Notes: generated from the letters alone by a model not told the origin. Positions 1 to 46,504 are shown, counted from the first letter of the stretch. The stretch is 49,123 nt of DNA from Acidimicrobiales bacterium (GCA_050742415.1 JBOGIF010000045.1:1-49123); one strand, 5' to 3'. Program-made: numbers and translations.

Positions 1-1
1 C

Positions 2-214
2 CTGACCGAAGCACTCGCTCTCGACCCGGTGCCGGTGGACGATTCGGTTGCCGAGGCTTGGTCGAGACTTCGCCTGCTCTTGCGAGACAGCGGCCAGCGC
101 ATGGGGGTCAACGACTCGTGGATCGCGGCCACCGCCATGGCGCATGGCATCCCGGTAGTCACCCAGGACGGCGATTACGTCGACGTTGAGGGTCTCGACG
201 TGCTCGTCGTTTGA
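2..214 (+). CDS. PIN-domain toxin (VapC-like), C-terminal fragment; 5' end lies outside the window
   Basis: Reading frame is open to the window edge. The C-terminal sequence ...SRLRLLLRDSGQRMGVNDSWIAATAMAHGIPVVTQDGDY... looks like the C-terminal half of PIN/VapC toxins. Confidence 0.6.
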   Translation: MTEALALDPVPVDDSVAEAWSRLRLLLRDSGQRMGVNDSWIAATAMAHGIPVVTQDGDYVDVEGLDVLVV

Positions 215-256
215 GACCGAGGCCGACGCTCGTTAGGACGCGTCGGCCTCGGTCTC
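213..256. terminator. Perfect 17-bp inverted repeat between convergent gene ends (candidate bidirectional terminator)
   Basis: GAGACCGAGGCCGACGC (213-229) and GCGTCGGCCTCGGTCTC (240-256) are exact reverse complements with a 10-nt loop. The left arm starts right after the PIN stop (212-214). The right arm lies in the last codons of the HAD gene. Confidence 0.5.
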
Positions 257-1432
257 GGTTTCGGGGCAGCAGTCCGTGTGTCCACGGTTGCGGCGGGAGA
301 CCAGCCGGACGAGGTCGCCGGCCATCCCGGTCATGTTGTGGGCGGCGATGCGCGGCAGTGAGTACCGGCAGCCGTCGTCGGGCTGGCTGCTGGCCAGTGG
401 CGAGATGTGGTCGACATGGGCCGACACCCGGTTGTCCTCGCCGAAGGTGACGTGGAGGCTGCGGCGCTGTGCCACCTCGCGCAGCGAGATCTCGCCGCGG
501 TGGAACAGGGCGCCGAGGCGTGTGTCGCGACGGAACCGGCCACTCGCTTCGAGCTGGCGCAACAGGTCCTCGGGGTCGTCAGCCTTGAAGTGGTGGGTGC
601 GGCCCGACGGGGCCATGCCGGCCGGGCGCAACGACGACTCGAGCCCGAGGGCTCGGAAGCGGTCATGCACCACGACCGTCGGCTGGCGCCGGTCTCGCTT
701 GGGGCCTTCCACGTCGTGGACTGGCCATCCGCGGTCATCGGCCACCCGGCGAAGCTTGTCGTCGGGGTTGACGACCGCCGGCCGGCCCACGAGCTCCAGC
801 AAGGGCAGGTCGTTGATGCTGTCGGAGTAGGCGACCGACTCGTTCAGGTTGATCCCCGCCGTCGCCGCGTGCGCCTCCACTGCGGACGCCTTGGCTGCTC
901 CGCGCAGGACCGAGCCTTCCAGGCGTCCGCTGTAGCGCTGGGCGTCGTCGACCTCGGCGCGGGTGCCGAGGCTCCCGGTCATGCCAAGTCCCTCCGCCAC
1001 GACCTGGGCCACCTCCGCGGGGGCAGCGGTGGCGACGAAGGTCAGGTCCCCGGCGCAGCGGTGCTGCTCGATGAGCTTGGCGATGTCCGGGAAGACGCGA
1101 GGAACTATCCGCTCGTGGGTGATCTCACGGGCGAGTGCCTCGATGTCTGGCCGACGACGTCCGGCCACGAACTCGAGGGCAGCGTTCGTGGAGCTCTCCA
1201 CTTGGGGGGCGGTCTCGAGGACTCCCCGGGACCGGTACTGCTCCCAGGCGAAGCGGGCGATCTCACGGGTGCGGAAGAAGTCACGCTGGTGCAGGCCCTG
1301 GGCGACCAGGAACAGGCTGGACCCGTGGATCAAGGTCTTGTCGAGGCCGAAGAAGGCCGCTCGCCGTTGTTCGGCGCCGAATTCCGGTTCGGTGGGAGGT
1401 GGCAGGTCGTGCGCGTCCAAGATTGCGTTCAT
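233..1432 (-). CDS. HAD-IB family hydrolase (SerB-like phosphatase fold) fused to a ~130-aa C-terminal domain of unknown function
   Basis: N-terminal ~260 aa carry HAD motifs (FFGLDKTLI..., ...YSDSINDLPLLELVGRPAVVNPD). The C-terminal part (HHFKADDPEDLL...VSAHVDHISPL...CRYSLPRIAAHN) is paralogous to the stand-alone ORF 18341-18787. Confidence 0.8.
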   Translation of the reverse strand: MNAILDAHDLPPPTEPEFGAEQRRAAFFGLDKTLIHGSSLFLVAQGLHQRDFFRTREIARFAWEQYRSRGVLETAPQVESSTNAALEFVAGRRRPDIEALAREITHERIVPRVFPDIAKLIEQHRCAGDLTFVATAAPAEVAQVVAEGLGMTGSLGTRAEVDDAQRYSGRLEGSVLRGAAKASAVEAHAATAGINLNESVAYSDSINDLPLLELVGRPAVVNPDDKLRRVADDRGWPVHDVEGPKRDRRQPTVVVHDRFRALGLESSLRPAGMAPSGRTHHFKADDPEDLLRQLEASGRFRRDTRLGALFHRGEISLREVAQRRSLHVTFGEDNRVSAHVDHISPLASSQPDDGCRYSLPRIAAHNMTGMAGDLVRLVSRRNRGHTDCCPETETEADAS

Positions 1433-1520
1433 GAGGGAGAACCTTTCCGTCGAGGGGTGAGGCGCCTTGAAGCAATGCGTGGGGTCTCGCCAAGGGCTCT
1501 GTTAAACGGTACCAGGACTT

Positions 1521-1536
1521 CGTGAAAAGTTTCACG
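1521..1536. promoter_or_regulatory. Palindrome CGTGAAA-AG-TTTCACG in an AT-richer stretch upstream of the HAD gene (possible operator)
   Basis: 7-bp perfect arms with a 2-nt spacer, about 90 nt upstream of the ATG at 1432, in the only low-GC patch of this intergenic region. Confidence 0.3.
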
Positions 1537-1650
1537 TATTAACCGGGGAACCTCTCCGATCTCTCGGGGCTCACTTTACGCGGCGGGGGTGACGGCCAGG
1601 TTCCCACGAGAAGGCGGCGGGATGAACACGTCAGCACACCCATCTGACGT

Positions 1651-1896
1651 CTACTTGGGCCGACGCCCGACTGCGTACCAGATCGACGACGCCACCAACC
1701 ACGTGGCATTGGTGGCGACCGCCGACGGCTCGCCCCGGACCGCCCAGCCGGCGACTATGGCGGCGACGGCAACGTGGTGCACGGCGAGCCAACGCCATCG
1801 CCGTTCGCGGACCACCGGCACGAAGCGTGTGATCACCGCGATCGAGGTTGGGTAACCGAAGGCGAAGAGGGCAGTGGCAACTGCGGTTGACGACAA
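1651..1896 (-). CDS. Small hydrophobic membrane protein, function unknown
   Basis: 81-aa ORF with 2-3 hydrophobic segments. It starts 2 nt after the stop of the upstream DUF983-like gene and shows G/C third-position bias. Confidence 0.5.
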   Translation of the reverse strand: MSSTAVATALFAFGYPTSIAVITRFVPVVRERRWRWLAVHHVAVAAIVAGWAVRGEPSAVATNATWLVASSIWYAVGRRPK

Positions 1897-1897
1897 T

Positions 1898-2293
1898 TCA
1901 ATCCTCGTCCCGCGGCTCGGTGGTTTCGGACGGGCGCATGATCAGGTCTATCGCGGTCCAGAGCGTCTTGGAGAACGGGTAGAAGATCAGCGGCGCCAGC
2001 AGGGCGGCCACGAGCCCACCCGCAACCACGCCGGCCACGCCCGCGTCGGGGTCCCGCGCCAGCAAGACGATGAGAGGCACGACGCCCACTGCGAGGAGCA
2101 GGCCCTCGGTGACGGCCAGGTTCACGACGTAGGCACCGAGAAAGAAGCCCTCCTCCCGCTCGAAGCGGTAGCCGCATCCCGGGCATCGCTCGCGCATGCG
2201 GAACCACCCGGTGAACAGACCACCGCTCCCGCAGAGGGGGCACCGTCGCCTCAGGCCGCGCCACAGCATTTTCCGGGTGGTCGGCGCCGTCAC
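1898..2293 (-). CDS. DUF983-like zinc-ribbon membrane protein
   Basis: N-terminal CPLCG...CPGCG zinc ribbon followed by two TM segments, the typical DUF983 layout. Its GTG start overlaps the upstream stop (GTGA). Confidence 0.75.
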   Translation of the reverse strand: MTAPTTRKMLWRGLRRRCPLCGSGGLFTGWFRMRERCPGCGYRFEREEGFFLGAYVVNLAVTEGLLLAVGVVPLIVLLARDPDAGVAGVVAGGLVAALLAPLIFYPFSKTLWTAIDLIMRPSETTEPRDED

Positions 2294-2859
2294 CGCTGTA
2301 GTCGGTCGCTGGCCAAGATCTCGGCCGCGCTGACTGCCATCCAGAGGTGGCCCAGCGTGAGCCCGATCCGCTGGAACAGGCCGGGATCAGGGCCGAGGAG
2401 ACTCGCCGCCAGCGAAGCCGCCGCCAACGCCCCGGTGGCCCTCGACGCCACGAGGGCTCGACCGCTACCGCCCGCTCCACCGGCAGCGAGCAGCGGAAGC
2501 GCCGCCAGGCTGAGATAGCCGGCACCCGCGAAAAGCCCGTGGAGGGTGTCGACGACGTGGGAGCCCGAACCGAGCGGGAAGGCGGCGGCCCCGAGGGTGG
2601 ACAGGCCGGTACCCACAGCCGCGACCCAGGCCGGCCCCGGGCGGGCCGAGCGCAGCGCCAGCCCGTAGAGCGGGGCACCGATTCCGAGGGCCACGAACCC
2701 AGCGGTCATCAGCGGGCGGGTGGGTGCCCCGACCGCAGCCAACCGGCTGATGGCGTCGCGGGTGGGGAAGTAGCCCGGCTGGCCGGTCCCGAGCAGCGAC
2801 CACGCCGAGACGAACGCGGCCGGGCCGACCACGCCGCCGACGGCGAGGGTACGAGTCAC
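2290..2859 (-). CDS. Polytopic membrane protein (DUF998-like)
   Basis: Gly/Ala/Leu-rich multi-TM protein. Start placed at GTG 2859 (VTRTLAVGG...), because the longer track ORF would overlap the upstream gene. The start is uncertain. Confidence 0.6.
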   Translation of the reverse strand: MTRTLAVGGVVGPAAFVSAWSLLGTGQPGYFPTRDAISRLAAVGAPTRPLMTAGFVALGIGAPLYGLALRSARPGPAWVAAVGTGLSTLGAAAFPLGSGSHVVDTLHGLFAGAGYLSLAALPLLAAGGAGGSGRALVASRATGALAAASLAASLLGPDPGLFQRIGLTLGHLWMAVSAAEILASDRLQR

Positions 2860-2876
2860 CCTGGGCGTGACGGCGT

Positions 2877-3194
2877 CTACCCGAAGGTCATGCTGCTGAG
2901 GGCGGCGACGATGAATATGACCGCCAGCACGGTAAGGACCAGCCCGACCCAACCGAGGACGATGCCGGCCGTCGCCATCCCCTGGCCGGCTTCACCTCGG
3001 TCGGCGATCTGGCGCCGGCCCACGTAGCCGAAGACGAGGGCCAGGATGGCGGGCAGGAAGACGAACGGGAGCACCAGGCCGAGGATCCCGCACACGAGCG
3101 AGGCAACCGCCATCCCGTTGGTCCGACCACTCGACGCGGGAGGCTGGGGCGGGGCCCACTCCGGTTGGCCGCCGGGCGCGGCAGGGACGCTCAC
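2877..3194 (-). CDS. DUF4190-like small membrane protein
   Basis: The C-terminal 78 aa (MAVASLVCGILGLVLPFVFLPAILALVFGYVGRRQI...GIVLGWVGLVLTVLAVIFIV) form the two-TM DUF4190 pattern. A GTG at 3194 overlaps the MBL stop (GTGA). An ATG at 3113 is an alternative start. Confidence 0.65.
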   Translation of the reverse strand: MSVPAAPGGQPEWAPPQPPASSGRTNGMAVASLVCGILGLVLPFVFLPAILALVFGYVGRRQIADRGEAGQGMATAGIVLGWVGLVLTVLAVIFIVAALSSMTFG

Positions 3195-3925
3195 GGCATC
3201 CGCGACAGCAGCCGGTGCTCGTAGCCGTCGGCCAGGGCATGGAGGGCTTCCACGCAGTCGCCCTCGTAGGACGAGCCGTGCATGAGGGCGAGGGTGCGGG
3301 GTTCCAGGTCGGCCAGCCGCCGGATCAACGGGGCCGTGCCGGGCATGAGGCAGGTGGCGGCGGCGGTGTCCTCGTCGGTAGCCAGGGCCCGCTCGACCAC
3401 GTCGTCCTCGCGCACCGCCGGGCCCGGGCCGCCGTGGGTGAACAGGTCCCCGCACAGCAGCGTGGAGGTGCGTTCCTCGAAGAGGATCCCAGCGTCCCAG
3501 CCGTGGGGCACGTGCGGGGTGTCGATCCAGCGCACCCTCAGCCCACCGAGGTCGACGCGCTCCCCGTCGGCCAGGGCCCGGGGTGCCCGGTCGGCCAGGT
3601 CGCCCACGTTGACGTTGCAACCCACCGCGCCCTGGGCGGCCTGGGAATCGGGTGCGGCGGCCAGCCACTGGTTCATCGCCCCCATCTCGTCGGCCTCGGT
3701 GTGGCCGAACGCCAGCCAGCGGAGCGTGCGCACCTTGACCACCCTGCCCGCTGCCTCCTGGAGCATCGGGAACATGTGCCGGTAGCCGCAGTGGAAGAGC
3801 AATGGCTCGTCGGCCCGCAACAGGAACTGGTTGACGGTGAACCCATCGGTAGCCACGTCGGGGAAGAACGTCGACAGCCGGAAGATGTTGTCGGCGATCT
3901 CGTCGACCGCCGTCTTGAGCGTCAT
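3191..3925 (-). CDS. MBL-fold metallo-hydrolase
   Basis: 244-aa ORF with beta-lactamase-fold signatures (...FGHTEADEMGA..., ...TPHVPHGWD..., ...LMHGSS...). It starts 10 nt after the grdA stop. Confidence 0.8.
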   Translation of the reverse strand: MTLKTAVDEIADNIFRLSTFFPDVATDGFTVNQFLLRADEPLLFHCGYRHMFPMLQEAAGRVVKVRTLRWLAFGHTEADEMGAMNQWLAAAPDSQAAQGAVGCNVNVGDLADRAPRALADGERVDLGGLRVRWIDTPHVPHGWDAGILFEERTSTLLCGDLFTHGGPGPAVREDDVVERALATDEDTAAATCLMPGTAPLIRRLADLEPRTLALMHGSSYEGDCVEALHALADGYEHRLLSRMP

Positions 3926-3935
3926 CGCCCAGGCG

Positions 3936-4391
3936 TCAGCCCGGGGCGCGCATGGACCGCACCGCGGTGGCCAGGGCCTCGGCGTCGAGGACGTCGGCCA
4001 TCAGTCCGATCTGGGTCTCCCACACGTCGTCGGGCACCAAGGTCCGGACCTCTTCGTCGAGCACGTGGTACACGTCGAGGCCCAACTGGGCCCCAGCCAG
4101 TGCACCTGCGTAGGCCGGGTCCCCCGACACGACCGTCTCGGCTGCGATCTCGGCGGCTTCCGGGTCGGGAGCGCCGAGCAGCACGAGCAGGTTGCGGGGG
4201 CCGTGGGCCTCGGCCAGCCGGGCTATCGCCAGCTGACTCTGCAGGTCCATGGCGCCTGACGCCGTTCAGACGAAGCACTCGGTGGCGACGAACGCCACCG
4301 TGCCACCGGCCGCCGCTACACAGGCGGCGATGGCCGGACCGGGGACGCCGTCGCGTTCGCCCAGGGCGATCACCCGACGGTCCTCGAACAT
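3936..4391 (-). CDS. grdA: Glycine/sarcosine/betaine reductase complex selenoprotein A (GrdA); in-frame TGA (4266-4268) = selenocysteine
   Basis: Track ORFs 4266-4688 (tail MFEDRRVIALGERDGVPGPAIAACVAAAGGTVAFVATECFV) and 3936-4250 (MDLQSQ...) are in the same frame, separated only by TGA + TASGA. Joined, they read ...ATECFV-U-TASGAMDLQSQ..., which reproduces the GrdA ...ECFVUTAAGAMDLENQ... Sec motif. ATG at 4391. Confidence 0.9.
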
Positions 4392-4393
4392 GG

Positions 4394-4762
4394 TCAACTC
4401 ACCTCCCCGGCATTCTCGAGCGCCGGCTCGGCGCCTGCCGGCTCGCCCAGCTCCGAGTCGAGCCAGCCGGTCAGCTTGGCCGCAGACAGCGCCGGATCGG
4501 ACAGGCGGGCCACCTCCTGGCCGTCGCGGTAGAGCAGGAACGTGGGCAAGCCCATCACCCGAATCTGCATGCACAGGCGGCGGGCGGTAGGCGCCTCGAG
4601 CTTGACCACCCGCAGGTCGGCCCGGGACTCGGCGATCCCCTCGACTGTGGGCAGCAAGGCCAGGCACGGCCGGCACTGCGGCCCCCACACGTCGACGAGG
4701 ACAGTGCCAGCGGCGACGAGCTCGTGGAACGTGTCAGGGCTGGCATCCATTATCGGCATCAT
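4394..4762 (-). CDS. trxA: Thioredoxin
   Basis: WGPQCRPC active site and thioredoxin-fold length. ATG 4762 overlaps the grdC stop (ATGA). Sits between grdC and grdA, as thioredoxins do in grd operons. Confidence 0.85.
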   Translation of the reverse strand: MMPIMDASPDTFHELVAAGTVLVDVWGPQCRPCLALLPTVEGIAESRADLRVVKLEAPTARRLCMQIRVMGLPTFLLYRDGQEVARLSDPALSAAKLTGWLDSELGEPAGAEPALENAGEVS

Positions 4763-6192
4763 GAGTCGGACCCCCTTTTCGGATTGCGTTCGAGAAGCAC
4801 GCTCATCCCGTCGGAGAGCTGGCACATTCGTCCCAGGAACAGGCTGCCCTTGGCGATCATCTGGACCCTACTAGCACCCCCGGCGGTGAGCCGGTCGAGG
4901 GCGTGGGGCAGGTAGCACAGCGCAGACGCCAGGTGGCCCTGGGTGGGGGCGTAGCCGGGCATGCCCCGCTCGGCCACAAAGGCGGCGATGTCGGTGCGGG
5001 CGATGTCGCCCCTCTGGGCCGCCAGGGCGGCAATGGTGCGGTAGTTCCGCTCCGGCACGTTGCCCGAGCCCTGGGGCTCGGTGACCTGGGGGTCGTGCAG
5101 CTCGGTGGCGTAGTCGTCCACGTCGGTGGCCGACAGCCCCAGGCGCTCCAGCGGCTCGATGGACAGGGCGCCCATCACCTGGGCGTTGGAACCACCGGCG
5201 CTGACCCGGTGGCGCCCGACCGAGTCGAGGCGCAGTCGGGGCGAGGTCCAGTCGTCGGCCGTGAACAGGGCGGCGGCCCCGCCGAGCACGTCCTCCAGCA
5301 CTGGCAGGTCGTTGCGGAGGTGGCCCTGGAACTTCATGCCCAGCTTGGCCAGGGACCCTCCGGCCACCACCGCGACCCTCTCGAAGACACCCGCTGCCAC
5401 CAGGGAGCTGGCGACCACGAGGGCGGGAACGGGCGCGGCGCAGAAGTCCTTGACGTCGCACCCGGAGGCCTCGGTGAGGCCCACTGCTTCGGCCACCGCC
5501 TTGGCCATGTTGCCGCCACCGCGCTGGTAGCGATCCCCGATGGCCTCCTCGCCGCAGCCCACCACGTAGTCGATGGACGCCGGGTCGACGCCGGTCTGGT
5601 CGAGCAGGTGGAACAGGGCCAGGGTGGCGGTGGCCTTGGCCGCCAGGTTGTCGATCAGGACGCCGGCGGCCAGCGACGGGTCGTCGGCCTGGCCGCAGCG
5701 CATCACCGCCCCCTGGCGGAGGCGCAGAGCCCCGGCCTCGGCGGCCACCGCTTCCACGTCGCCCCTGGCCCGGTCGATGCCCTCGAGGTTCAGCCGCTTG
5801 GCGAGAGGGTGGGCGGCCAGGGCCTTGGCCGCCTCGTCGGCCAGCTCGTCCGACAGAACGAGGAGCCCGAACTCGTCGACTGTCGCCGCAAGACCCAGCA
5901 GCTCGTGCTCGGGCATCAGCTCGCCGGCCCGTCCCCATCTCGACGCCGACACGACTGCGCCGGGCTGGTAGGGCCGAGGAGGCAGGTCGCGAGGGTGGAT
6001 GGTGTTCAGGTATGCCTGGTGGGGCGGGTAGGCGACGGCCTCGTCGAATTCACGCAGGGCGGCGGCGAAGGCGGCCTCGACCGCCGGGTTCTTCGCAAGC
6101 TCGCGGCTCGGTTTCGAGCCGTGGCGGGCCAGGCCGGGCACGTGGGCCAGGACCTGGGTGGCGGCCGGGATGACGACCTCAGGCATTCTCAT
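4759..6192 (-). CDS. grdC: Glycine reductase complex component C, beta subunit-like (GrdC; thiolase/FabH-like)
   Basis: 477 aa. The conserved stretch ...YVVGCGEEAIGDRYQRGGGNMAKAVAEAVGL...GCDVKDFCAAP... matches GrdC as I recall it. Context is between grdB and trx/grdA. The start could be the second ATG at 6186. Confidence 0.8.
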   Translation of the reverse strand: MRMPEVVIPAATQVLAHVPGLARHGSKPSRELAKNPAVEAAFAAALREFDEAVAYPPHQAYLNTIHPRDLPPRPYQPGAVVSASRWGRAGELMPEHELLGLAATVDEFGLLVLSDELADEAAKALAAHPLAKRLNLEGIDRARGDVEAVAAEAGALRLRQGAVMRCGQADDPSLAAGVLIDNLAAKATATLALFHLLDQTGVDPASIDYVVGCGEEAIGDRYQRGGGNMAKAVAEAVGLTEASGCDVKDFCAAPVPALVVASSLVAAGVFERVAVVAGGSLAKLGMKFQGHLRNDLPVLEDVLGGAAALFTADDWTSPRLRLDSVGRHRVSAGGSNAQVMGALSIEPLERLGLSATDVDDYATELHDPQVTEPQGSGNVPERNYRTIAALAAQRGDIARTDIAAFVAERGMPGYAPTQGHLASALCYLPHALDRLTAGGASRVQMIAKGSLFLGRMCQLSDGMSVLLERNPKRGSDS

Positions 6193-7489
6193 CCACCTCG
6201 AAGACAGTTGGGGCCGACACCGGTGTGCTGACCGCCTGTAGGGCTCTTTTCAGAAGTGACCGTCGCCACGCCCGCTCGGCGGCGGGTTCGAGCGATGGGT
6301 CCCCGGTGGGATAGGGGATGCCCCGGGTCGGCACGATGCGAGGCGCCCCCACGCGCACCGCGATCGACACCAGGTTGCAGAGCAGGGCCGTGGGTATCCC
6401 GGCTCGCTCCAGCTCCTTCGCAAGCGTTGCCCCGCAACGCGTCCCGGTTCCTCACGTGGCCGTCAGGATCGCAGCCCGGGCCTCGGAATGGTGGAGGTCG
6501 GCGGCCCACTCGATGCCGAACCGCCGGGCATTCCCCACCGAGGTGCCGTTGCCGGTGGTCACGAAGTACTCGCCAGCGAGCCGGCCGACTGCGCCCTCGC
6601 TCTCCAGCTCCCGGGCGGTGTCGAGGGGCAGTATCCGGTGCGGATCGGCGTTGGCCCAGGCGGTGGAGAAGCCACCGTGGACGGACCGCCACTGGCCGGG
6701 CTCCAGGCTCCCCACGCCGTCAAGGCGGTAGCGCAGCCATCGGGTGGCCCGCGCCGACTCGAGGTTGCCGGGATTGTCGTCGGGCACCAGGCCGCCCTCG
6801 GTGAGCAGGGCGACCGTGACGTTCGCCAGGTCGGTCACCGGCGCCGCCGGCGTGACCCGGTCGAAGCGGGGGAGTGGCACCTCGGTGGTGGTGGTGTCGC
6901 CGCCCAGCCGGGCCAGCACCAGGTCCACAGCGCGCTCGGCGGCCGAGCGGGAGGCGAGCCGCGAGATCCGGGGCACGCTGCCCACTCGGCCCTCGGCGGC
7001 GGTGAGGGGACGGCCGGACGCCACCACGGCCACGGCAGCGGCCAGCGCTTCCAGCGAGGGGCCCATACCCCGGGCAACCTCGGTGCTGGCCACGACCGGA
7101 GCTCCGGCCGCCTCGTCGAGCCCGGGATTGTCGCCGTGCATGGAGGCGAGGGCCGGCAGGCCTGCGGCGGTGGCGGCTGCCACCAGCCGGGCGCAGGCCA
7201 GCCCGTAGCGGCCGCTGGTGAACGCCGGACCGGCCACCACGAGGTCGGGCTCCGCCGCCGTGACCAGACCCAGGATCTCGTCGATGGCGCCGGTGGTGCC
7301 GGCGGCGTAGTCGTCGCCGCAGGAGACGGTCGCCACGATCTTGTACTCGTCGCCCAGGAGCTGGGCCAGTCGGCGGCCAGGACCGACCGGCCCCGGCGTC
7401 GACGCAGGAGCGGTCCCGGCCGCGTCCTCGCCGCCCACCCCGGCGAAGAACTGGTTGACGTAGTGGACGACGCGGGTCACTGGTGTCAC
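6179..7489 (-). CDS. grdB: Glycine/sarcosine/betaine reductase component B selenoprotein (GrdB family); in-frame TGA (6452-6454) = selenocysteine
   Basis: ORF 6452-7489 (MTPVTRVVHYVNQFFAGVGGED...AAILTAT) continues in the same frame after TGA as GTGTRCGATLAKELERAGIPTALLCNLVSIAVRVGAPRIVPTRGIPYPTGDPSL... (includes track ORF 6179-6370). This gives the GrdB ...T-U-GTxTRCGAT... motif. Total is 436 codons, the usual GrdB size. Confidence 0.9.
6424..6440 (-). promoter_or_regulatory. Candidate bacterial SECIS hairpin for the grdB UGA
   Basis: On the mRNA strand, GCGUUGC-GGG-GCAACGC (7-bp stem, G-rich triloop) begins 11 nt after the UGA. This is the expected position of a bacterial SECIS. Confidence 0.4.
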
Positions 7490-8769
7490 GCCACGTTCTC
7501 GGCGCAGGTGAACCGGCCCCAGCCGAGGGGGCTGAGGGCGCAGTAGACGACGGCGGCCGGCAGCACGAGCTCGGAGGTAGCGGGCAAGCCGAGCAGGGCC
7601 AGCTGGTCGCCCCCGAGGCTGCGCTCGACGGCTGGCAGCACCAGCCGGGTGTCGTAGTTGCCGGTGCTCACCATGGCGGTAGCCCGCTCGGGGGCGACCA
7701 CGATCGGCGGGCCGGTGCCGTCGGGACCGGCCATCTCGCCGAACAGGCCCACGGCCGGGATGCCGAGCTCCTCCAGGGCGTCCATCTTCAGGGCCATGTC
7801 GGCGTCGGCATTGCCGCCGCCCTCCTTGGTCACTATCACTGCCTGGAAGCCGGATTCCTGGCAGAGGCGGGCGGCCTGGGCCGAGACCGCCTCCTTGGCC
7901 GCCATGTCGACCGGCTCGGGAGAGAGCACGATCCCGGCGAAGCGGAGGTCGTGCCCGTGGCGGGCGGCCAGGGCGGCCACTACCGGGTGGTTCTGGTGCA
8001 CGTAGGTGGGGTTCTTGAGCGCTGGGTGGCCGTACTGGCCACTCACCACGGCACCGTCGTCGAGCTCGCCGGGGCCGATCAGGATGGGCTCACCGCCAGC
8101 CAGGCTACGCCCGTAGACGAAGACGTCCTTGAACGCCCCCTGGGTCTGGAGGTTGGTGATCACGCCCACCGCGGGGAGGCCGTCGGCGCTGTCGGGCAGC
8201 GGCGGGAGGACCTCCTCCACCGCGTCGGGCGGTGCGGCCAGGGTCGCATCGGCCAGGTGCACGGCGAGCGCCAGCAGGCCCTGCCGAAGCCCGGCCTCCA
8301 CCTCGTCCCACGCCGCGCCGTCGGCCGGCGTGAACTCCACCACCAGGTTGTGGGTGCCGGCCAGAGGCGACAGCGACGCCGCCGGGCCGCTCATGTCGAC
8401 CACCGCCTCCTGGGCCCGGGGCAGGTAGCCGGCGGCGACGACCGCGGCGCCGCGCAGCACGTGGGTCCTACCGGTGGCCTGGGGCTCCGCGGGTCCCACG
8501 AAGCCGGGGAAGATCCCGCCCCCGCCGGGGCCCTTGGTGCGGGGTTCCACCGCGTCGAGGACCTTCACGATCCGCGCCGGCTCGCCCGGCGAAACCCACG
8601 AGACCCGGACGGCCGCGACCGCCGGGGACGCCTTCGAGCGGACCAGGGCCTCCACCTCGGGCGCCGACACGGTCAGTAAGCCGTCGGCGTAGCTGGTGGC
8701 CGGCCCGAAGGCGACGGCGCGGACTTGGTGGACGAGGCGGACCAGGGAAGCTCCGGGCGACAAAGCCAT
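7486..8769 (-). CDS. grdE: Glycine/sarcosine/betaine reductase component B alpha/beta proprotein-like (GrdE/GrdG/GrdI family)
   Basis: 427 aa from ATG 8769, with ATGA overlap onto grdB. Conserved blocks ...GVITNLQTQGAFKDVFVYG..., ...VIVTKEGGGNADADMALKMDALEELGIP... are typical of this family. The substrate subtype is not assignable (see findings). Confidence 0.8.
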   Translation of the reverse strand: MALSPGASLVRLVHQVRAVAFGPATSYADGLLTVSAPEVEALVRSKASPAVAAVRVSWVSPGEPARIVKVLDAVEPRTKGPGGGGIFPGFVGPAEPQATGRTHVLRGAAVVAAGYLPRAQEAVVDMSGPAASLSPLAGTHNLVVEFTPADGAAWDEVEAGLRQGLLALAVHLADATLAAPPDAVEEVLPPLPDSADGLPAVGVITNLQTQGAFKDVFVYGRSLAGGEPILIGPGELDDGAVVSGQYGHPALKNPTYVHQNHPVVAALAARHGHDLRFAGIVLSPEPVDMAAKEAVSAQAARLCQESGFQAVIVTKEGGGNADADMALKMDALEELGIPAVGLFGEMAGPDGTGPPIVVAPERATAMVSTGNYDTRLVLPAVERSLGGDQLALLGLPATSELVLPAAVVYCALSPLGWGRFTCAENVA

Positions 8770-8785
8770 GCCTGATAATTGCACT

Positions 8786-9634
8786 ATGGAGGCAGGGAGG
8801 CGCTGGCGGCGGTTGGTGCGGGCCCGGGCCGCCGAGACCCGCCGCCTTACCGCCGAGGTCGTGCCCACCTCGCCGGGGTTCTGGGACCAGAGCGCCCGCC
8901 GCATGGCGGACAGGATGCCCCTGGCGACCGCGGACGATCCCTTCTTGCGGCGCCTCCGGCGCGCCTGCGGCACGGCGACCACCGTCGTCGACGTCGGGGC
9001 GGGCAGTGGCCGGTACGCGCTGGCGCTCGCGCCCCACGTGCGCCGGGTGGTCGCCGTGGATTCCAGCCCGGCCATGCTCGACGTCCTGGCTGATCGGTCG
9101 GCCGCGGCCGGCGTGGGCAACGTGGATCTGGTGGTGAGCCGCTGGGAGGACGCCGAGGTGCCTGTCGCCGACGTCGTCTTCTCGGCCTTCGTCCTGCCGC
9201 TCGTGGAGGACGCTGCTGCGTTCCTGCGGCGCCTCGATGCCGGGCCCCGCCGCCGGGCATTCCTTTACCTCGGGGCGCCGGGCAGCGAGGCGGTCTACGA
9301 GCCCTTCTGGCGGTATTTCCACGGTGTTCCGCGCCGACCCGGGCCCACGTGGCTCGACGCCCTCGCTGTGCTGCGCGAGATAGGCGTGGAGCCCGACGTG
9401 GAGGTCCTGGACATGCCGTTCCGCCCGCGTTTCGCCAGCCTGGAGGAGGCGGTTGACGACTTCCGCCGCATGCTGGCTCTCCCCGACACGGCTGCCGCCC
9501 GCTCGGAGCTGAGTGCGCTTCTCGACCTGTGGCTGGTCCGCCGCGGGCCGCACCTCGCCTCGCCCGCTGGCAGCCTGACGACTGCCCTCCTGAGCTGGCG
9601 ACCGGCCAGCACGGCGGCGAGAGTAGGCCCATGA
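8786..9634 (+). CDS. Class I SAM-dependent methyltransferase
   Basis: Motif I VVDVGAGSGRYAL and motif II-like DVVFSAF. Start taken at ATG 8786, so the track ORF start at 8696 would overlap grdE. Later starts are possible. Confidence 0.75.
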   Translation: MEAGRRWRRLVRARAAETRRLTAEVVPTSPGFWDQSARRMADRMPLATADDPFLRRLRRACGTATTVVDVGAGSGRYALALAPHVRRVVAVDSSPAMLDVLADRSAAAGVGNVDLVVSRWEDAEVPVADVVFSAFVLPLVEDAAAFLRRLDAGPRRRAFLYLGAPGSEAVYEPFWRYFHGVPRRPGPTWLDALAVLREIGVEPDVEVLDMPFRPRFASLEEAVDDFRRMLALPDTAAARSELSALLDLWLVRRGPHLASPAGSLTTALLSWRPASTAARVGP

Positions 9635-11454
9635 GCACCGAGGGGATACGGGTCGAGGTCGTCGCCGAGCCCACCGAGGAGGCGCAGGTGACGGCGGCGA
9701 CCGCCCCGCTGCTCCGCCAACCGCTGGTCCTGCGCGACTTCCCGGGCGGCGACCATTGGCTCCTCGGGTGGGACGTGGCCGACAAGGACGACGGCCGGCC
9801 GTTCGTCGCCCGGGTGGCCGACGTCACGTCCGGTCGCATGACGGAGGTGCGGGGCCTGCTGGACGACCCCGGCTCGGCGTCCATCCACTTCGTCGGCTCG
9901 CAGCGCCCACCGTCGGACGACGAGTGGGAATGGGCGGTGAAGAAGCTGCGGGAAGCGGCGGCCGACGCGCTCGAAGAGGCCGCCGCAGCTGCCCATGACG
10001 CCGCCGCAGCAGCTGCCGAAGCGGCGGCGGACGCAGAGCCCGACCTCGCCGCCGAGCCGGCTGTCGCCGTGCCGTCGGTCCCGCGACCGCCGTCGGTGCC
10101 TCCGGTCGGCTCGGCCGGAGGAAGTCCCCTGCCCGTCGTGCGATTCACCGACCACGTGGAGGATGAGGACGACGACGAGCCGGAGCGAGACCTCCCACCC
10201 CTGGACGCCTACCGGCCAATGCCCCCACTGGCCAATGTCGTCGATGCCGACGGCGTCGTCCGCAGGGTCGTGACGGTCGGCTTGAGGGCGGACGACGGAA
10301 CCCACAGCATCGTCGGCGTCCGGGTGGGAGATGGCGAGCAGGTCGAGCTCGGCCCCGACGTGACGGCCTTGGCTGCCGGGCCGGAGTGCGGCCTGCCTCC
10401 AGGAGATGCATGCGGACCGGTCGCCGGATCGGAGCGGGCCCGGGTCCGGGTGGTCCGCGGCGACACCGTCCTGTGGGACCTGGTCGTCGTGCGGGCGCCG
10501 GGGTCGTCGGGCACCAACGGCTCCGGAGTGGAGCTGTGCGACGTGGACCACCTCGGCAAGCGCGTCCTGAGTCGTGCCCACCTCCCGATCCTCAACGTCG
10601 CCTACCGCGGCGCCGGGGATAGCCCCGTCTACCGGTCGTGGCTGCACGACGAAGCCTGCTTCGAAGCGACCGGCGACGACGTGGCCGCCGGCTTCCGGCT
10701 GTGCACCGAGCCGCCGGTCACCGCCCTGGAATCTGAGACCGACGGCGGTGCCTTCCGGGGCGTCGCCCTCTGGGTCGATGGCGAGGACCTCGTCGTCGTG
10801 AGCCAGCTCCGGGCCGGCTGGCACCGCTACGTGAGCGAATGGCGCCTCGGCGCCGACGGCACCATCGCGCCCCGGCTCGGCATCGCCACCGCGCGCCATG
10901 GAGGCGGCGGCTGGGTGCACACCCACCACGCCTACTGGCGGTTCGACTTCGACATCGTTGGCCCGGCCGAGAACACCGTGCAGGAGCACAACGACCCCCC
11001 GGTGTTCGGCACCACCTCCTGGCACACCATCCGCCACGAGATGCGTCGCACCCGCAGCCCGGAGAGCGATCGCTACTGGAGGGTCCGCAACGACCGGTCG
11101 TCACGGTCCTACTCGCTGGTGCCGGGGGCCGGCGACGGCGAGGCAGACGGCTTCGGCGTGGGCGACGTGTGGTTGTTGCGCTACTCGCCCGACGAGATCG
11201 ACGACGGCCAGGGATTCACGGCCGACCCGGTGCTGGCCAGGGCTGGCCTCGACCGCTTCCTGACGGGGGAGCCGACGCACCGTGAGGACGTCGTCCTCTG
11301 GTACTCCGCCCACCTCGTTCACGAGCCGGCCTCCTCGCCCGTTGCCGGTCGCATCGGCCCCGACGTGCGAGCTCGGCTGTGGTCGTCCGAGCCGTCGGCC
11401 GAGCTTCAGCCCGCGGGGATCGCCGAGTCGGGGCCGTCGGCGGTCACGACGTAG
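9631..11454 (+). CDS. Divergent copper amine oxidase-like (C-terminal catalytic-domain-like) protein with an Ala/Pro/acidic low-complexity linker
   Basis: ATG 9631 overlaps the methyltransferase stop (ATGA). The C-terminal half has CuAO-like blocks: LPILNVAYRGAGDSPVYRSWLHDEACFEATG (cf. VVPYGDP...FDxGExGxG), WVHTHHAYWRFDFDI (cf. HxHxFxxRxDxDxDG) and DVVLWYSAHLVHEP (cf. DxVxWxxxGxxHxP). Confidence 0.6.
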   Translation: MSTEGIRVEVVAEPTEEAQVTAATAPLLRQPLVLRDFPGGDHWLLGWDVADKDDGRPFVARVADVTSGRMTEVRGLLDDPGSASIHFVGSQRPPSDDEWEWAVKKLREAAADALEEAAAAAHDAAAAAAEAAADAEPDLAAEPAVAVPSVPRPPSVPPVGSAGGSPLPVVRFTDHVEDEDDDEPERDLPPLDAYRPMPPLANVVDADGVVRRVVTVGLRADDGTHSIVGVRVGDGEQVELGPDVTALAAGPECGLPPGDACGPVAGSERARVRVVRGDTVLWDLVVVRAPGSSGTNGSGVELCDVDHLGKRVLSRAHLPILNVAYRGAGDSPVYRSWLHDEACFEATGDDVAAGFRLCTEPPVTALESETDGGAFRGVALWVDGEDLVVVSQLRAGWHRYVSEWRLGADGTIAPRLGIATARHGGGGWVHTHHAYWRFDFDIVGPAENTVQEHNDPPVFGTTSWHTIRHEMRRTRSPESDRYWRVRNDRSSRSYSLVPGAGDGEADGFGVGDVWLLRYSPDEIDDGQGFTADPVLARAGLDRFLTGEPTHREDVVLWYSAHLVHEPASSPVAGRIGPDVRARLWSSEPSAELQPAGIAESGPSAVTT

Positions 11455-13070: not shown

Positions 13071-13622
13071 ATGATGGTGACAGTGCGCACCGACCTCCCC
13101 GACCCGCGTCTGATGGCCCGAGGCCTCGCCGTGCTGAGGATCTTCGCCGGCGTGATCCTGTTTGCCAACGGCGTGGCCAAGCTCTTCGGGATCACCACCA
13201 TCACGGCGGGCCCGTACGCCGCCAATTTGATCAACCGGAGCGCCACTCGCTTCATCCTGCGTTTCGAGGGCCTCCAGAACCAGGCCAACGGCGGCCCGGG
13301 CACCGAGGTGCCGGGGCTCCAGCCGATCGTACGGTTCATGCTCGACAACTTCGGTTGGGTCCAATGGCTGATCACGGCCGCAGAGCTCGGGATCGGCGCC
13401 CTGCTGATCGTCGGCCTGGCCAGCCGGGGCGCCGCGGTACTGGGTCTTGCCAACCACCTCTTCCTTGCCGCGCTCTATGCGTCGTCCAATCGCTGGCTGT
13501 TCGAGCAGCCCCATGAGTACGTACCGCTGCTGATCCTGGTCCTTGTGCCCTCCGGGCGAGTCTGGGGACTCGACGGTGCGCTCCCGTTTTCGAGGGCCCG
13601 GGCCGGCCGGTTCCCCTTCTAA
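13071..13622 (+). CDS. DoxX/DoxD-like membrane protein
   Basis: 4-TM protein with LRIFAGVILFANGVAKL... and ...GRVWGLDG, typical of the DoxX family. Confidence 0.75.
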   Translation: MMVTVRTDLPDPRLMARGLAVLRIFAGVILFANGVAKLFGITTITAGPYAANLINRSATRFILRFEGLQNQANGGPGTEVPGLQPIVRFMLDNFGWVQWLITAAELGIGALLIVGLASRGAAVLGLANHLFLAALYASSNRWLFEQPHEYVPLLILVLVPSGRVWGLDGALPFSRARAGRFPF

Positions 13623-13632
13623 CCTTCAGGGA

Positions 13633-14265
13633 ATGCCCATCTCGCCCGCCCCCAACCCGGTCGGCGGGACCGCCGACGCCTGTGGCGGAGTCAGCACCGC
13701 CAATGGCCGCGTAGCTCCTCTCGTGCCCCTTATCGCTGCCGAGCAGGCACCGCTGCTGGCCCGGCGGTTCTTCGCCGACGGTGATCCCGGGCCGATCGTC
13801 GCCGCGCTCGCCCAGGTGCCCGAGCTGCTCGAAGTGACGGCACCGTTCCTGGGCACGGTGCTCGGGCCGTCCTGCATCGCCACCCGGACCAAGGAGATCA
13901 TCATCCTGAGGACGTCGGCCCGGGCGTCGTGCCGGTACTGCGTCGACGCGCACACTGTCGTGGCGCTCGACGCCGGCCTGTCGGTGACCGAGGTACGAGC
14001 CCTGCGGGGTGAGCTCGACGCGGCGAAGGTCTTCGTTGACCCGGCTGACAGGGCGGCGGTCGGGTGGTGCGACGCGCTGGTCGCTACCGGCCCGGTGTCG
14101 CCGGAGGCCAAGTCGCAGCTCCGTGGCCGCTTCGCCGACCACGAGGTGGTCGAGCTGACGCTGCTAGCCACCACGACGTTGCTGCTCAACCGGTTCTGCA
14201 CCTCCCTGGACCTGCCCACCTCTCCGGGGGTCCGGGCCCGTCTGGCCACCGAGGGCCTCGGGTGA
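13633..14265 (+). CDS. Carboxymuconolactone decarboxylase (AhpD-like) family protein
   Basis: ...EIIILRTSARASCRYCVDAHT... is the CxxC-H AhpD/CMD signature. ATG at 13633. Confidence 0.8.
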   Translation: MPISPAPNPVGGTADACGGVSTANGRVAPLVPLIAAEQAPLLARRFFADGDPGPIVAALAQVPELLEVTAPFLGTVLGPSCIATRTKEIIILRTSARASCRYCVDAHTVVALDAGLSVTEVRALRGELDAAKVFVDPADRAAVGWCDALVATGPVSPEAKSQLRGRFADHEVVELTLLATTTLLLNRFCTSLDLPTSPGVRARLATEGLG

Positions 14266-15098
14266 CCGCCGTCGCCGACGCCGCGGCCGGCGGGGTCCTG
14301 GGTGATCGGGTATGGCTGTACAGCAACTACCACTGCAACCTGGCGTGCGCTTACTGCCTCACCGACTCGGCCCCCTCGTCGCCCCGGCGAGACCTGTCGG
14401 CCGAGGCCATGGTCACGGTGGCCCGCCAGGCCGCGGAGCTGGGCTTCGGGGCACTGGGCGTCACCGGTGGGGAGCCGTTCCTGCGATCGGACCTTCCCGA
14501 GACGTTGGCCACCCTGGCCGCCGTCCTCCCCACCGTCGTCCTGTCCAACGCCACCCTGTTCGCAGGCGCCCGCCTGGAGAGGCTCAGGCCCCTCGCTGAT
14601 CTCGACGTAGCCGTCCAGGTCTCTCTGGACCGAGCCGAGGCGGCTGCCAACGACGAGCTACGGGCTGCCGGCAACCACGCCCGGGTGGTGGAGGCCATCC
14701 CCCGCCTGGTGGAGATGGGAATCCGCGTGCGGATCGGCACCACGCTCGACCCCGCGGCCGAGATCGGCGACGACGAGAAGGCCCGCCTCTGCGCCCTCCA
14801 CCGCGCCCTGGGCGTGGGCGACGAGGACCACGTGGTGCGCCCGGTGGTGCGCCGGGGCCGGGCTGCCGCGACCGACATGGGGGTGCCGGCCACGGCCGCC
14901 GATCTGCCCCCCGAGCTCACCATCACCGCCGACGGGGCGTTCTGGAGCCCGTTCGGCCCCACCGTGCGCGACGGGCGCCTGGACACCGACCTGCTGGTGA
15001 CCCGCACCACCGACCCCCTGGACATCCCGGCCTCCGCCCTGGCCCGTCTCGTCGAGGCGCGCCCACCGGGCGACGACTCCCGCCTCGGCATCCGCTGA
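14262..15098 (+). CDS. Radical SAM protein (no SPASM-type C-terminal Cys cluster)
   Basis: CNLACAYC (CxxxCxxC) and the GGEPFL glycine-rich motif. Its GTG overlaps the CMD stop (GTGA). Confidence 0.85.
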   Translation: MTAVADAAAGGVLGDRVWLYSNYHCNLACAYCLTDSAPSSPRRDLSAEAMVTVARQAAELGFGALGVTGGEPFLRSDLPETLATLAAVLPTVVLSNATLFAGARLERLRPLADLDVAVQVSLDRAEAAANDELRAAGNHARVVEAIPRLVEMGIRVRIGTTLDPAAEIGDDEKARLCALHRALGVGDEDHVVRPVVRRGRAAATDMGVPATAADLPPELTITADGAFWSPFGPTVRDGRLDTDLLVTRTTDPLDIPASALARLVEARPPGDDSRLGIR

Positions 15099-19015: not shown

Positions 19016-20233
19016 TCAGGCCGTCAGGGCGTCGGCAAGCTCCCGCACGAAGAGGCCTACGTCGGTCACGATGCCCAAGGCCTGCTGGGTGCCCCGGTCG
19101 GCCAGCTTCGTGACCACGGCCTGGTTGATGTCGACGCAGTAGATCTCCACGCTGGCCGCCAACAAGTTGCCGACGGCCACGGCGTGGAGGGTGGAGGCCA
19201 GCATGAGAGCGACGCGTACGCCGTCGAGATGCGCACGCATGGCGTCCTGCGCTTCGACCACGTCGGTCACCACGTCGGGCAGCGGGCCGTCGTCGCGCAC
19301 CGAGCCACCGAGCACGAACGGCACCCCACGGCGCACGCACTCGTACATGACCCCAACGGTGAGGTCGCCGTCGGTGACACCCCGCTCGATGGATCCCCAC
19401 CGGCGGACCGCGTTGATGACGCGGAGGTGGTTGGCGTGGCTGCCCTCGGTGGTGGCGCCCTCCATAACGGACACGCCCAATGACGTGCCGAAGAGGCTCG
19501 TCTCGATGTCGTGGGTGGCGAACCCGTTGCCGGAGAACAGCACGTCGACCCATCCCTCGCGCACGAGGGTGGCAAGGTGCGGGCCGGCCCCCGTGTGGAC
19601 CACCGCCGGACCGGGGACGGCGAGCAGGCGGCCGCCGTCGGCGCGCGACGCGCGTATGCGATCGGCCACCCGGGTGACCAGCAGGCCCTTGGGCTTCTCG
19701 GCCGAGACCTCCGAGGTCATGAACTCGAACTGGCCCACACCCCTGGGCTTCTCCCGTGGCCTGACCCGCACCCCGCCCTGGCCCACGACCACCGCGTCGC
19801 CGGCCCGCACGTGGTGCATAGGCCGGGCCTGCGCGCGCCGGCCGGCCCGGTCGACGACGAGCGCGCAGTCCATCTCCGGGCGGTCCACCTCGAGCCAGCG
19901 ACCCTCGACCCGGACCGAGGTCGGCAGGTTGGTGGTGGCGTAGAAGCCCTCGGGCAGGACGCCAGGTAGGGGAGCCGGGACCAGCACGGCGTCGCCCGTT
20001 TCGAGCGGTTGGGCGCCGTGGGGGTGCAGCTCGGCCAACAGCTTGCCCAGCGCAGCTTCGTCGGCCGCGGTGATCGTGATGCGGGCGACGGACGGGTTCG
20101 CGTTGGACCGGCCGAGGTCGAGGTCGACCATCCGGTAGTCGGCCCCGGCATCGACGATCAGGTCGAGGATCCTGGCGAGAACCAGCGAGTCGATGATGTG
20201 GCCCCGCACCTCGACGGTCTCGCTGGCGCTCAC
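19016..20233 (-). CDS. TIGR00300-type protein (LOR/SDH-like N-terminal domain); possible ornithine cyclodeaminase-type enzyme
   Basis: N-terminus VEVRGHIIDSLVLARILDLIVDAGADYRMVDLDLGRSNANPSVARITI is the LOR/SDH conserved domain pattern. GTG start at 20233. Confidence 0.8.
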   Translation of the reverse strand: MSASETVEVRGHIIDSLVLARILDLIVDAGADYRMVDLDLGRSNANPSVARITITAADEAALGKLLAELHPHGAQPLETGDAVLVPAPLPGVLPEGFYATTNLPTSVRVEGRWLEVDRPEMDCALVVDRAGRRAQARPMHHVRAGDAVVVGQGGVRVRPREKPRGVGQFEFMTSEVSAEKPKGLLVTRVADRIRASRADGGRLLAVPGPAVVHTGAGPHLATLVREGWVDVLFSGNGFATHDIETSLFGTSLGVSVMEGATTEGSHANHLRVINAVRRWGSIERGVTDGDLTVGVMYECVRRGVPFVLGGSVRDDGPLPDVVTDVVEAQDAMRAHLDGVRVALMLASTLHAVAVGNLLAASVEIYCVDINQAVVTKLADRGTQQALGIVTDVGLFVRELADALTA

Positions 20234-20291
20234 CGCTACGAACCTTAGGACTGCGCCTCCCGAGGGACACCGGCCGCAATACCGTTGGGTC

Positions 20292-37551: not shown

Positions 37552-37575
37552 TGGGACCTCCTGGAAGACTCGGGG

Positions 37576-38663: not shown

Positions 38664-38665
38664 GG

Positions 38666-45022: not shown

Positions 45023-45026
45023 AAAT

Positions 45027-46400: not shown

Positions 46401-46504
46401 GGACGCGCATTCTGGTCCACCGAAGCCCTGGGCGAGCCGCTTGCCTGATCCAGCCCCGTCCCTGCCGGCCGGACCGTCGGTGGGCGTAGGTAGCATCCGA
46501 TGCG

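Follow-up and report, generated by a model that had tools for sequence, protein, structure and literature searches.

What would a glycine-reductase-type (Grd-type) selenoenzyme do if it lacked both the self-cleaving cysteine of its alpha subunit and GrdD, the acetyl-phosphate-forming subunit of the clostridial enzyme? The question is raised by a stretch of DNA of 49,123 nucleotides from an Acidimicrobiales bacterium (GCA_050742415.1 JBOGIF010000045.1:1-49123), called the window here at its full length, which carries a cassette of genes for such a reductase. Reductases of the Grd type count as rare selenoenzymes and as a feature of strictly anaerobic amino-acid fermenters. We propose, with a probability of about 0.6, that the cassette encodes a functional, pyruvoyl-free and GrdD-independent reductase which depends on selenocysteine (Sec), would act on a substrate of the form X-CH2-COO- and represents a distinct subfamily of the Actinomycetota. 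An earlier interpretation made without database searches, referred to below as the sequence-only reading, had called the operon atypical. The features behind this judgement are real, but they are no quirk of the window: they are the trait of a clade found in about 311 species-level genomes.

Results

The first gene of the cassette (8769-7486, on the minus strand like all grd cassette genes of the window) encodes a GrdE-like protein of 427 amino acids, the alpha subunit of the substrate-specific protein B, which matches PF09338 with 321 bits (cut-off 22.2; E 1.2e-95). The pyruvoyl precursor of the characterised enzyme is Cys242 of C. difficile GrdE (PMC9908766), whereas 'the two conserved cysteines' are missing from the alpha subunits GrdI and FarE, which hence are no proproteins (PMC10838667). 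The only three Cys residues of the window protein are at positions 303, 410 and 422 and thus in its C-terminal third, as the sequence-only reading had stated, and its further claim that the processing Cys is missing, and not merely misplaced by eye, is borne out by alignment. A HMMER search of 1.84 billion cluster representatives returned 873 GrdE-like relatives, and in the alignment of the 126 full-length sequences among the best 150, 'SGQY-GHPA-LKNPTY' of the window protein occupies the same columns as canonical 'SGNCVSAC-DKNTTY', the canonical group including the GrdE proteins of loci L003 and L086, whose operons contain grdX. Both Cys of 'GNCVSAC' are gone, their columns being taken by Tyr246 and Ala250. 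Among the 120 closest clusters at 90% identity the processing column holds Ala in 58, Ser in 37, Gly in 25 and Cys in none, and because the residue varies in this way the site is not an essential nucleophile. Unprocessed members appear to be common in PF09338 at large, since only 28 of the 126 family representatives have Cys in this column. We predict that the GrdE-like protein is not processed.

None of the more specific alpha-subunit models claims the protein: it reaches 218.4 bits with GrdG (cut-off 780), 139.1 with FarE (NF053623; 675) and 29.1 with PrdA (TIGR04480; 700), and no clear orthology to glycine-specific GrdE was found. Sequence searches of the PDB with the GrdE-like or the GrdB-like protein gave no match at E<=1, and the structure searches found no solved structure of any protein B component. 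An AlphaFold2 model of the GrdE-like protein (predicted local distance difference score, pLDDT, 81.8), in which loop 247-251 is disordered, has no significant match among PDB folds (best E 0.098, template modelling score 0.17), so that structure gives no functional clue for this subunit. Three PF09338 representatives, P0122 (798 amino acids), P0145 (774) and P0191 (789), are about twice the normal length, which would fit fusions of GrdE with GrdB or gene calls running past the 4-nt overlap between the two genes.

The beta subunit of protein B is encoded by the adjoining grdB-like gene (7489-6179, minus strand), which starts with GTG and specifies 436 amino acids including Sec. It passes PF07355 (350 bits against 22) and TIGR01918 (402.2 against 65.45), and on this profile evidence the window proteins belong to the Grd/Prd reductase superfamily, and there to the protein B type. 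Every model for a particular substrate is failed: TIGR01917 for glycine with 370.8 bits against 602.2, GrdF with 418.6 against 800 (the sarcosine models for GrdG and GrdF being NF040793 and NF040794), GrdH (NF040795) with 356.8 against 775, and PrdB (TIGR04483) with 68.2 against 300. For comparison, the canonical GrdB of L086 scores 663.7 bits with TIGR01917 and the GrdBs of other non-canonical clusters 434-667, so that the window protein has the lowest score and is the most divergent of the GrdBs compared. It also fails both the GrdB and the GrdF motif of PMC9751293, of which the former is passed by the canonical control L003. It reads GPAFTSGRYG, then VHGGFST where the motif has AHGGxD (GrdB) or IHGGYDR (GrdF), and RILPLD; the GrdF motif IHGGYDR...TTGTGT is absent, whereas one element of the published motif for glycine GrdB, TxGNxTxV, is kept as 'TTGNGTSV'. 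Behind Sec the clade has GTGTRC and canonical GrdB has GTCTRC, the first Cys of UxxCxxC being Gly throughout the clade. 'U-GTGTRC' was considered as a clade marker and rejected, as it is present in L089 and L090 too. Labelling of the PF09338 groups by the names of their sources was likewise dropped, the names of ten representatives being generic or absent, and NCBIfam cut-offs were used instead. The suggestion that the alpha subunit is either of the unprocessed GrdI type or of a new specificity therefore holds as the best reading, but not in the sense that the pair are GrdI/GrdH orthologues, given the GrdH score.

How far this variant extends was assessed with two peptide patterns specific to the clade, for which a single genome of each GTDB species was scanned; this gave 353 matches, 311 of them encoding a relative. 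The best 80 of these matches all lie in metagenome-assembled genomes (MAGs) of Actinomycetota, which comprise Acidimicrobiales, Solirubrobacterales, Thermoleophilaceae, Egibacteraceae and Mycobacteriales and, to judge by their names, come from soil, desert, Antarctica and the like. The 120 closest GrdE-like clusters are 68-74% identical to the window protein, and those with names come from Acidimicrobiales/Acidimicrobiia or from unclassified Actinomycetota MAGs. Between clade GrdE and the other representative groups of PF09338, identity does not exceed 40%. Gene order is E-B-C-Trx-A in 45 and E-B-C-A in 8 of the 55 loci that extend 5 kb or more beyond the grdE start, and the individual genes have median amino-acid identities of 59-73% with those of the window, with synonymous variation. 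Existing annotation of the clade is inconsistent ('glycine reductase', 'sarcosine reductase' and even 'beta-aspartyl-peptidase'), and among the papers searched none was found to connect glycine reductase with Acidimicrobiia, Solirubrobacterales, Thermoleophilia or Actinomycetota.

The absence of grdD and trxB from the window, both reported by the sequence-only reading, was confirmed. As canonical reference we used the operon of metagenome contig L086, which comprises selA, selB, grdX, grdE, grdB, trxB, trxA, grdA, grdC (513 amino acids) and grdD (383 amino acids, PF02504). In tblastn searches its GrdD, GrdX and TrxB found no match at E<=1 in the whole window, and Pfam scans of 20 further large open reading frames (ORFs) in the rest of the window found no FA_synthesis or Pyr_redox_2 domain. 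Nor is a canonical grdD to be expected just beyond its edge, because a plus-strand ORF (29-214) faces the minus-strand genes at the low-coordinate end and the operon thus does not run out of the window. The 1.18 Mb around the 80 related cassettes, taken together with the first 20 kb of the window, contain no GrdD match at E<=1 either, and grdD lies within 10 kb in 0 of 82 related loci. Where, then, is GrdD found? A metagenome collection was scanned with a G+C-biased back-translation of GMGCTGPI, the invariant active-site peptide of GrdD, which yielded 63 stretches, of which 52 are genuine GrdD, with GC contents of 0.43-0.65. In all 30 GrdD loci with enough upstream sequence grdC lies immediately upstream of grdD, whereas none of the 52 adjoins a clade-type GrdE and none exceeds 65% GC (clade cassettes, 65-76%). 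Clade grdC has an adjacent grdD in 0 of 70 cases. Where there is a GrdD, its gene thus regularly adjoins grdC, a rule to which all 70 clade cases are exceptions. By comparison the lack of trxB is unremarkable, since TrxB is a housekeeping enzyme and trxB follows the cassette in only two related loci, both of Thermoleophilaceae and both directly after grdA (L029 6393-7307; L031 14815-15732). Clusters of Grd type without GrdD were also seen elsewhere, namely in a Chloroflexota MAG (L088 10001-14964), an unassigned contig (L089 7744-12606) and a Desulfobacteraceae contig (L091 49-5121).

The remaining subunits are orthodox. GrdC, the thiolase/KAS-III-like beta subunit of protein C (6192-4759, minus strand; 477 amino acids), passes NF040746 with 522.9 bits against 450, and selenoprotein A, GrdA (4391-3936, minus strand; 151 amino acids including Sec; PF04723), passes NF040748 with 196 bits against 130. 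Since both pass equivalog cut-offs, the carboxymethyl-to-acetyl chemistry downstream of protein B is probably conserved. All 67 GrdC sequences compared, canonical ones among them, have Cys251, and at least 66 of the 67 keep H291, H328, H366, N383 and H420, a pattern consistent with a thiolase-type acyl-enzyme; comparison of GrdC with solved structures gave only marginal KAS-III matches (E about 0.1). After KGSxFxGR, GrdC has a tail of 22 amino acids in the window and of 15-29 in the GrdCs of GrdD-less clusters, as against 45-50 amino acids with an amphipathic helix in the two GrdD-linked GrdCs (L086 9364-10905 and L090 9161-10696). The GrdCs of GrdD-less clusters, from four lineages, also share 'LSDGMS' where those of L086 and L090 have 'LFDG[AV]S'. 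The helix, of some 25-30 amino acids, was seen only in these two GrdD-linked proteins and is missing from every GrdC of a GrdD-less cluster; it may be a docking element for GrdD.

Between grdC and grdA lies trx (4762-4394, minus strand; PF00085), for a thioredoxin of 122 amino acids with the active site CRPC. Its best NCBIfam match is the clostridial Grd-type TrxA (74.8 bits, cut-off 140), and throughout the clade the site is CxxC with a variable second residue, mostly C-x-P-C, never WCGPC and without Trp. The missing Trp is a likeness to the clostridial Grd thioredoxin, which has 'GCVPC' in L086. In about 11 loci (L005, L009, L011, L018, L035, L053, L056, L058, L061, L065 and L075) trx is missing from between grdC and grdA; the gap there is only 131-201 nt instead of the usual 480-500 or so and thus too short for trx, from which it follows that a four-gene version of the cassette exists. 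Two further loci, L045 and L062, have room for trx yet no adjacent grdA.

Both selenoprotein genes contain an in-frame TGA. The grdB-like frame reads through the one at 6454-6452 (minus strand) as '...AAILTAT-U-GTGTRCGATLAKE...' and continues for 85 further conserved codons to 6179, the clade motif being T[AS]T-U-GTGTRCG and the canonical one ST-U-GTCTRCG. The TGA of grdA (4268-4266, minus strand) lies in a CxxU motif, 'ECFV-U-TASGAMD' in the window and ECFV-U-TA[AS]GAMD in the clade. TGA occupies the Sec site of grdB in 69 of 69 related loci and that of grdA in 61 of 61. Directly after the UGA of grdB a selenocysteine insertion sequence (SECIS) hairpin is formed by GCGUUG-CGGGG-CAACGC (6451-6414, minus strand); across 68 distinct sequences (GCGUUG-CGGGK-CAACGC) its stem is invariant even at wobble positions, whereas the three codons ahead of it vary freely there. 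The gathering score of the Rfam family SECIS_4 (RF01990) is 38; the window site, with 26.5 bits (E 0.0047), falls short of it, and the homologous site of L022, with 40.9, exceeds it. For the grdA UGA only a weak 4-bp hairpin is predicted downstream. The selenium-utilisation genes selA-selB lie 2-3 kb upstream of the cassette in four Solirubrobacteraceae loci (L050, L076, L078 and L082; at about 5-8.6 kb), and no such genes and no tRNA-Sec were found in the window. Cys forms of GrdA and GrdB were considered for the Chloroflexota locus L088, where both genes had been called uninterrupted, and were rejected because both hold an in-frame TGA.

The gene order grdE-like, grdB, grdC, trx, grdA, metallo-beta-lactamase (MBL) gene and membrane genes given by the sequence-only reading agrees with our profile searches. 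Of the two ATGA overlaps that it reported, the one between grdC and trx (4762-4759) is correct, but that between grdE and grdB (7489-7486) is GTGA, in keeping with the GTG start of grdB. The genes are tightly packed, with an overlap of 8-14 nt between grdB and grdC and spacers of 2 nt between trx and grdA and of 10 nt between grdA and the next gene, an ODP/MBL-fold gene (3925-3191, minus strand; PF19583, 26.7 bits, just under the cut-off of 27.2). Pfam scans identified the two genes that follow on the same strand as DUF4190 (3113-2877) and DUF998 (2952-2290). Upstream, a divergent S-adenosylmethionine (SAM)-methyltransferase gene starts at 8786 on the plus strand, only 16 bp from the grdE-like ATG at 8769 (region 8767-8788), which leaves two possibilities, a pair of leaderless mRNAs or promoters that are each located within the opposite gene. 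A consensus scan of positions 1-10000 of the window, which has an overall G+C content of about 72%, found no promoters or terminators and no sigma-70-like site in this gap, and the window contains no riboswitch at the Rfam gathering threshold.

For a transporter, a regulator or a GrdD substitute, 1,112 ORFs from 81 loci were clustered. Beyond the cassette nothing recurs in these loci except lineage-limited neighbours, which are a copper-amine-oxidase (CuAO)-like protein, a Mo-oxidoreductase with its DmsC-like partner, MobA and selA/selB. Of the 81 loci, fewer than 3 contain a member of the ODP/MBL homology cluster, and the DUF4190 and DUF998 genes are non-recurrent as well. Not being conserved beside the cassette in relatives, the MBL and membrane genes are local neighbours and no components of the system, which upholds the view that they are not standard grd constituents.

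The CuAO-like gene of the window (9529-11454, plus strand) lies beyond the SAM-methyltransferase gene, divergently upstream of the cassette. A CuAO-like protein of 580-640 amino acids with a partial PF01179 match (E 3e-7 to 1e-11) is likewise encoded divergently upstream in 11 of the 80 related loci (ORF cluster 7: L007, L013, L014, L018, L022, L027, L039, L041, L058, L072 and L079). By eye, the tyrosine that gives topaquinone (TPQ) in true amine oxidases appears to be replaced, and the proximity of this gene to the cassette reflects either a functional link or mere lineage synteny. Another upstream set recurs within a few kb in some 7-10 Acidimicrobiales loci (L005, L014, L022, L027, L033, L036, L040 and L045) and consists of a molybdopterin oxidoreductase (Fe4S4, Molybdopterin and Molydop_binding domains), a fused 4Fe-4S/DmsC-like membrane protein, a MobA-like protein and MsrB. 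Farther away the window holds a CMD-family gene with a radical-SAM gene (13543-15098), a bifunctional putA (20139-23288) and a cbtA cobalt transporter gene with a cobalamin biosynthesis cluster (CbiC, CbiG/TP_methylase and CobB/CobQ-like; 36814-46520).

Discussion

How might such an enzyme work? Drawing on established Grd chemistry (PMC9908766, PMC10838667, PMC9751293), we suggest that the unprocessed GrdE-like/GrdB-like pair would bind X-CH2-COO-, that the Sec of the GrdB-like subunit would attack the alpha carbon with release of X, and that the carboxymethyl group would then pass to the Sec of GrdA. Because the pyruvoyl group is likely absent, no imine should be needed for X to leave, as with betaine and fluoroacetate, the substrates of the two Cys-less systems that have been characterised. 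A leaving group that needs no Schiff-base activation, such as a quaternary or tertiary ammonium (betaine), a halide (fluoroacetate) or something comparable, would thus be expected rather than the amino group of glycine. The orthodox GrdA and GrdC make carboxymethyl a very probable C2 unit; Cys251 of GrdC would take it over as an acetyl thioester and leave GrdA oxidised (Se-S), to be re-reduced by the thioredoxin of the cassette, which in turn would be recycled by housekeeping TrxB and NADPH, with TrxB encoded elsewhere. In the absence of GrdD it is most likely GrdC by itself that hands the acetyl group to coenzyme A (CoA) or water, with acetyl-CoA or acetate as the probable product; alternatively, an unlinked phosphotransferase would accept the acetyl group. 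With neither a self-cleaving Cys nor GrdD, both substrate and end product probably differ from those of the textbook enzyme.

More tentatively, GrdD-independent E-B-C-(Trx)-A modules might form a separate and widespread class of selenoenzymes, most abundant in Actinomycetota of soil, desert and caves and present also in Chloroflexota and Desulfobacterota. Such a class would be pyruvoyl-free, and its substrate would be none of glycine, sarcosine and betaine but, say, an acetate with some other N-, S-, O- or halogen substituent; its GrdC alone would yield acetyl-CoA or acetate, and its role would lie in carbon and nitrogen scavenging or in detoxification and not in fermentative ATP synthesis. 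We consider this generalisation possible but rather doubtful.

Several points weigh against the proposal of a pyruvoyl-free, GrdD-independent enzyme with a substrate of its own. Loss of the Cys is no proof that a carbonyl cofactor is lost, and with Ser in 37 of the 120 clade members a serine-derived carbonyl is conceivable there; a second, unlocated carbonyl has moreover been proposed in GrdB (PMC10838667, PMC9908766). The GrdB of L091 passes the glycine equivalog TIGR01917 while its GrdE has Ala at the Cys site, and because of this pairing Cys loss alone does not exclude glycine as substrate. The absence of GrdD applies to the 10 kb on either side of each cassette, and the metagenome scan with GMGCTGPI was biased and had no matched positive control. 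It is by NCBIfam cut-offs that the clade has been set apart from GrdI/GrdH and FarE/FarB. Genomic context gives no clue to the substrate, as the flanks of the 81 loci are not conserved and contain no recurrent transporter, and the window sequence itself was found only in DNA runs of cave metagenomes.

But might the cassette not simply belong to one of the known reductases? A true betaine reductase of the GrdHI type, which would convert betaine to trimethylamine and a carboxymethyl group and provide soil Actinomycetota with a reductive route for this osmolyte, strikes us as unlikely. It would account well for the missing Cys, as GrdI is the classic unprocessed homologue without it (PMC10838667), and betaine is presumably abundant in the dry, saline and cold soils suggested by many MAG names. 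However, for the beta subunit the GrdH model scores below both GrdF and GrdB, the source annotations of the clade read 'glycine' or 'sarcosine reductase' and never betaine, and no transporter of the OpuD/BCCT type recurs beside the cassette; if active on betaine, the enzyme would form an independent lineage. Somewhat less probable still is an ordinary glycine or sarcosine reductase with grdD and trxB elsewhere in the genome, a carbonyl supplied in some other way and acetyl phosphate as its product. This would agree with the equivalog-level GrdA and GrdC, with the retained 'TTGNGTSV', with the glycine-type GrdB (by hidden Markov model) that L091 combines with a Cys-less GrdE, and with the expectation that trxB lies elsewhere anyway. 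It does not readily explain why both published motifs fail, why the TIGR01917 score is the lowest of all GrdBs compared, why grdC is adjoined by grdD in every informative GrdD locus and in no clade locus, or why clade GrdCs have no C-terminal tail like that of their GrdD-linked counterparts.

Finally, gene calling breaks grdB and grdA apart at their TGA codons, as would be expected of a decaying, non-functional remnant in which these were true stops or assembly errors. Such an explanation is effectively ruled out by TGAs at identical codons in all genomes compared, with an open and conserved frame beyond them, by the conserved grdB hairpin and its SECIS_4 match, and by the adjacency of selA-selB in some genomes; the preserved protein identities and the synonymous variation point the same way. 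Taken together, the evidence leads us to favour a functional, Sec-dependent enzyme without pyruvoyl group and GrdD.

What would such an enzyme mean? A survey based on the canonical GrdB motif reported 107 species from natural non-serpentinite habitats and 360 from host-associated or artificial ones (PMC9751293). One divergent clade adds about 300 species-level genomes of Actinomycetota from soil, desert, Antarctica and caves, all of them with Sec-decoding signals. Soil, desert and cave habitats are commonly regarded as oxic, and if the enzyme is active the known ecological range of selenium-dependent metabolism would reach into mostly oxic, oligotrophic habitats. Activity would furthermore add a new substrate specificity to a family that already cleaves C-N and C-F bonds, would allow the dispensability of GrdD and the pyruvoyl group to be tested on a natural example, and would mean that the current annotation of the clade genes is wrong.

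Comparison with known Grd-type systems

The clostridial glycine reductase of Acetoanaerobium sticklandii, Peptoclostridium acidaminophilum and C. difficile shares with the window cassette homologous E, B, A and C subunits and a dedicated Grd-type thioredoxin, and also Sec in GrdB and GrdA (CxxU), the Rfam family of the grdB SECIS and the nucleophilic Cys of GrdC. It differs in having 'GNCVSAC' where the window has 'GQYGHPA', in the GrdD, GrdX and TrxB that the cassette lacks in cis, in the longer GrdC tail and in U-GTCTRC instead of U-GTGTRC. In addition, the window GrdB-like protein satisfies neither TIGR01917 nor the published motif, and the hosts of the clade are high-GC Actinomycetota of soil and caves and not anaerobic fermenters. 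For both window subunits the sarcosine proteins GrdG and GrdF are the top-scoring specific NCBIfam models (218.4 and 418.6 bits), far below the cut-offs of 780 and 800, and GrdG is a Cys-processed proprotein.

In the betaine reductase GrdI/GrdH of Peptoclostridium acidaminophilum the alpha subunit is no proprotein, since it has no processing Cys (PMC10838667), and in this it is matched by the window protein. The window GrdB-like protein, on the other hand, falls far short of the GrdH cut-off, and GrdH is not even its best-scoring model. Moreover, GrdHI in the characterised organism feeds a shared GrdA and GrdCD, whereas the window cassette has a GrdA and a GrdC of its own and no GrdD. As judged from the models, the resemblance to GrdI is one of function, in the sense of an unprocessed alpha subunit, and not of membership. 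Similarly, the fluoroacetate reductase FarE/FarB of Cloacibacillus porcorum MFA1 (Synergistota) has an alpha subunit without the two conserved Cys and a beta subunit that lost (part of) the CxxC after Sec, and it sets a precedent for a Grd-type enzyme with a non-amine X-CH2-COO- substrate (PMC10838667). Far is inferred to share protein A and protein C of the organism, whose grdA is upregulated (PMC10838667). The window proteins differ from FarE/FarB in the low score with the FarE model and in that the beta subunit keeps the second Cys (U-GTGTRC).

Alike in composition are the GrdD-less clusters L088, L089 and L091, which like the window combine E, B, C, trx and A without grdD and have GrdCs with a short tail and 'LSDGMS'. 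Their GrdEs, however, are at most 40% identical to that of the window, the gene order differs in L089 and L091, and the GrdE of L088 keeps the processing Cys. L089 adjoins genes for an amidase, an isochorismatase-family protein, an amidohydrolase and an MR_MLE protein, a setting that perhaps points to supply by an N-heterocycle or creatinine-type pathway. Set beside all these systems, the window cassette is, so far as its sequence allows us to judge, a genuine and conserved variant of a known enzyme system and not a new kind of system.

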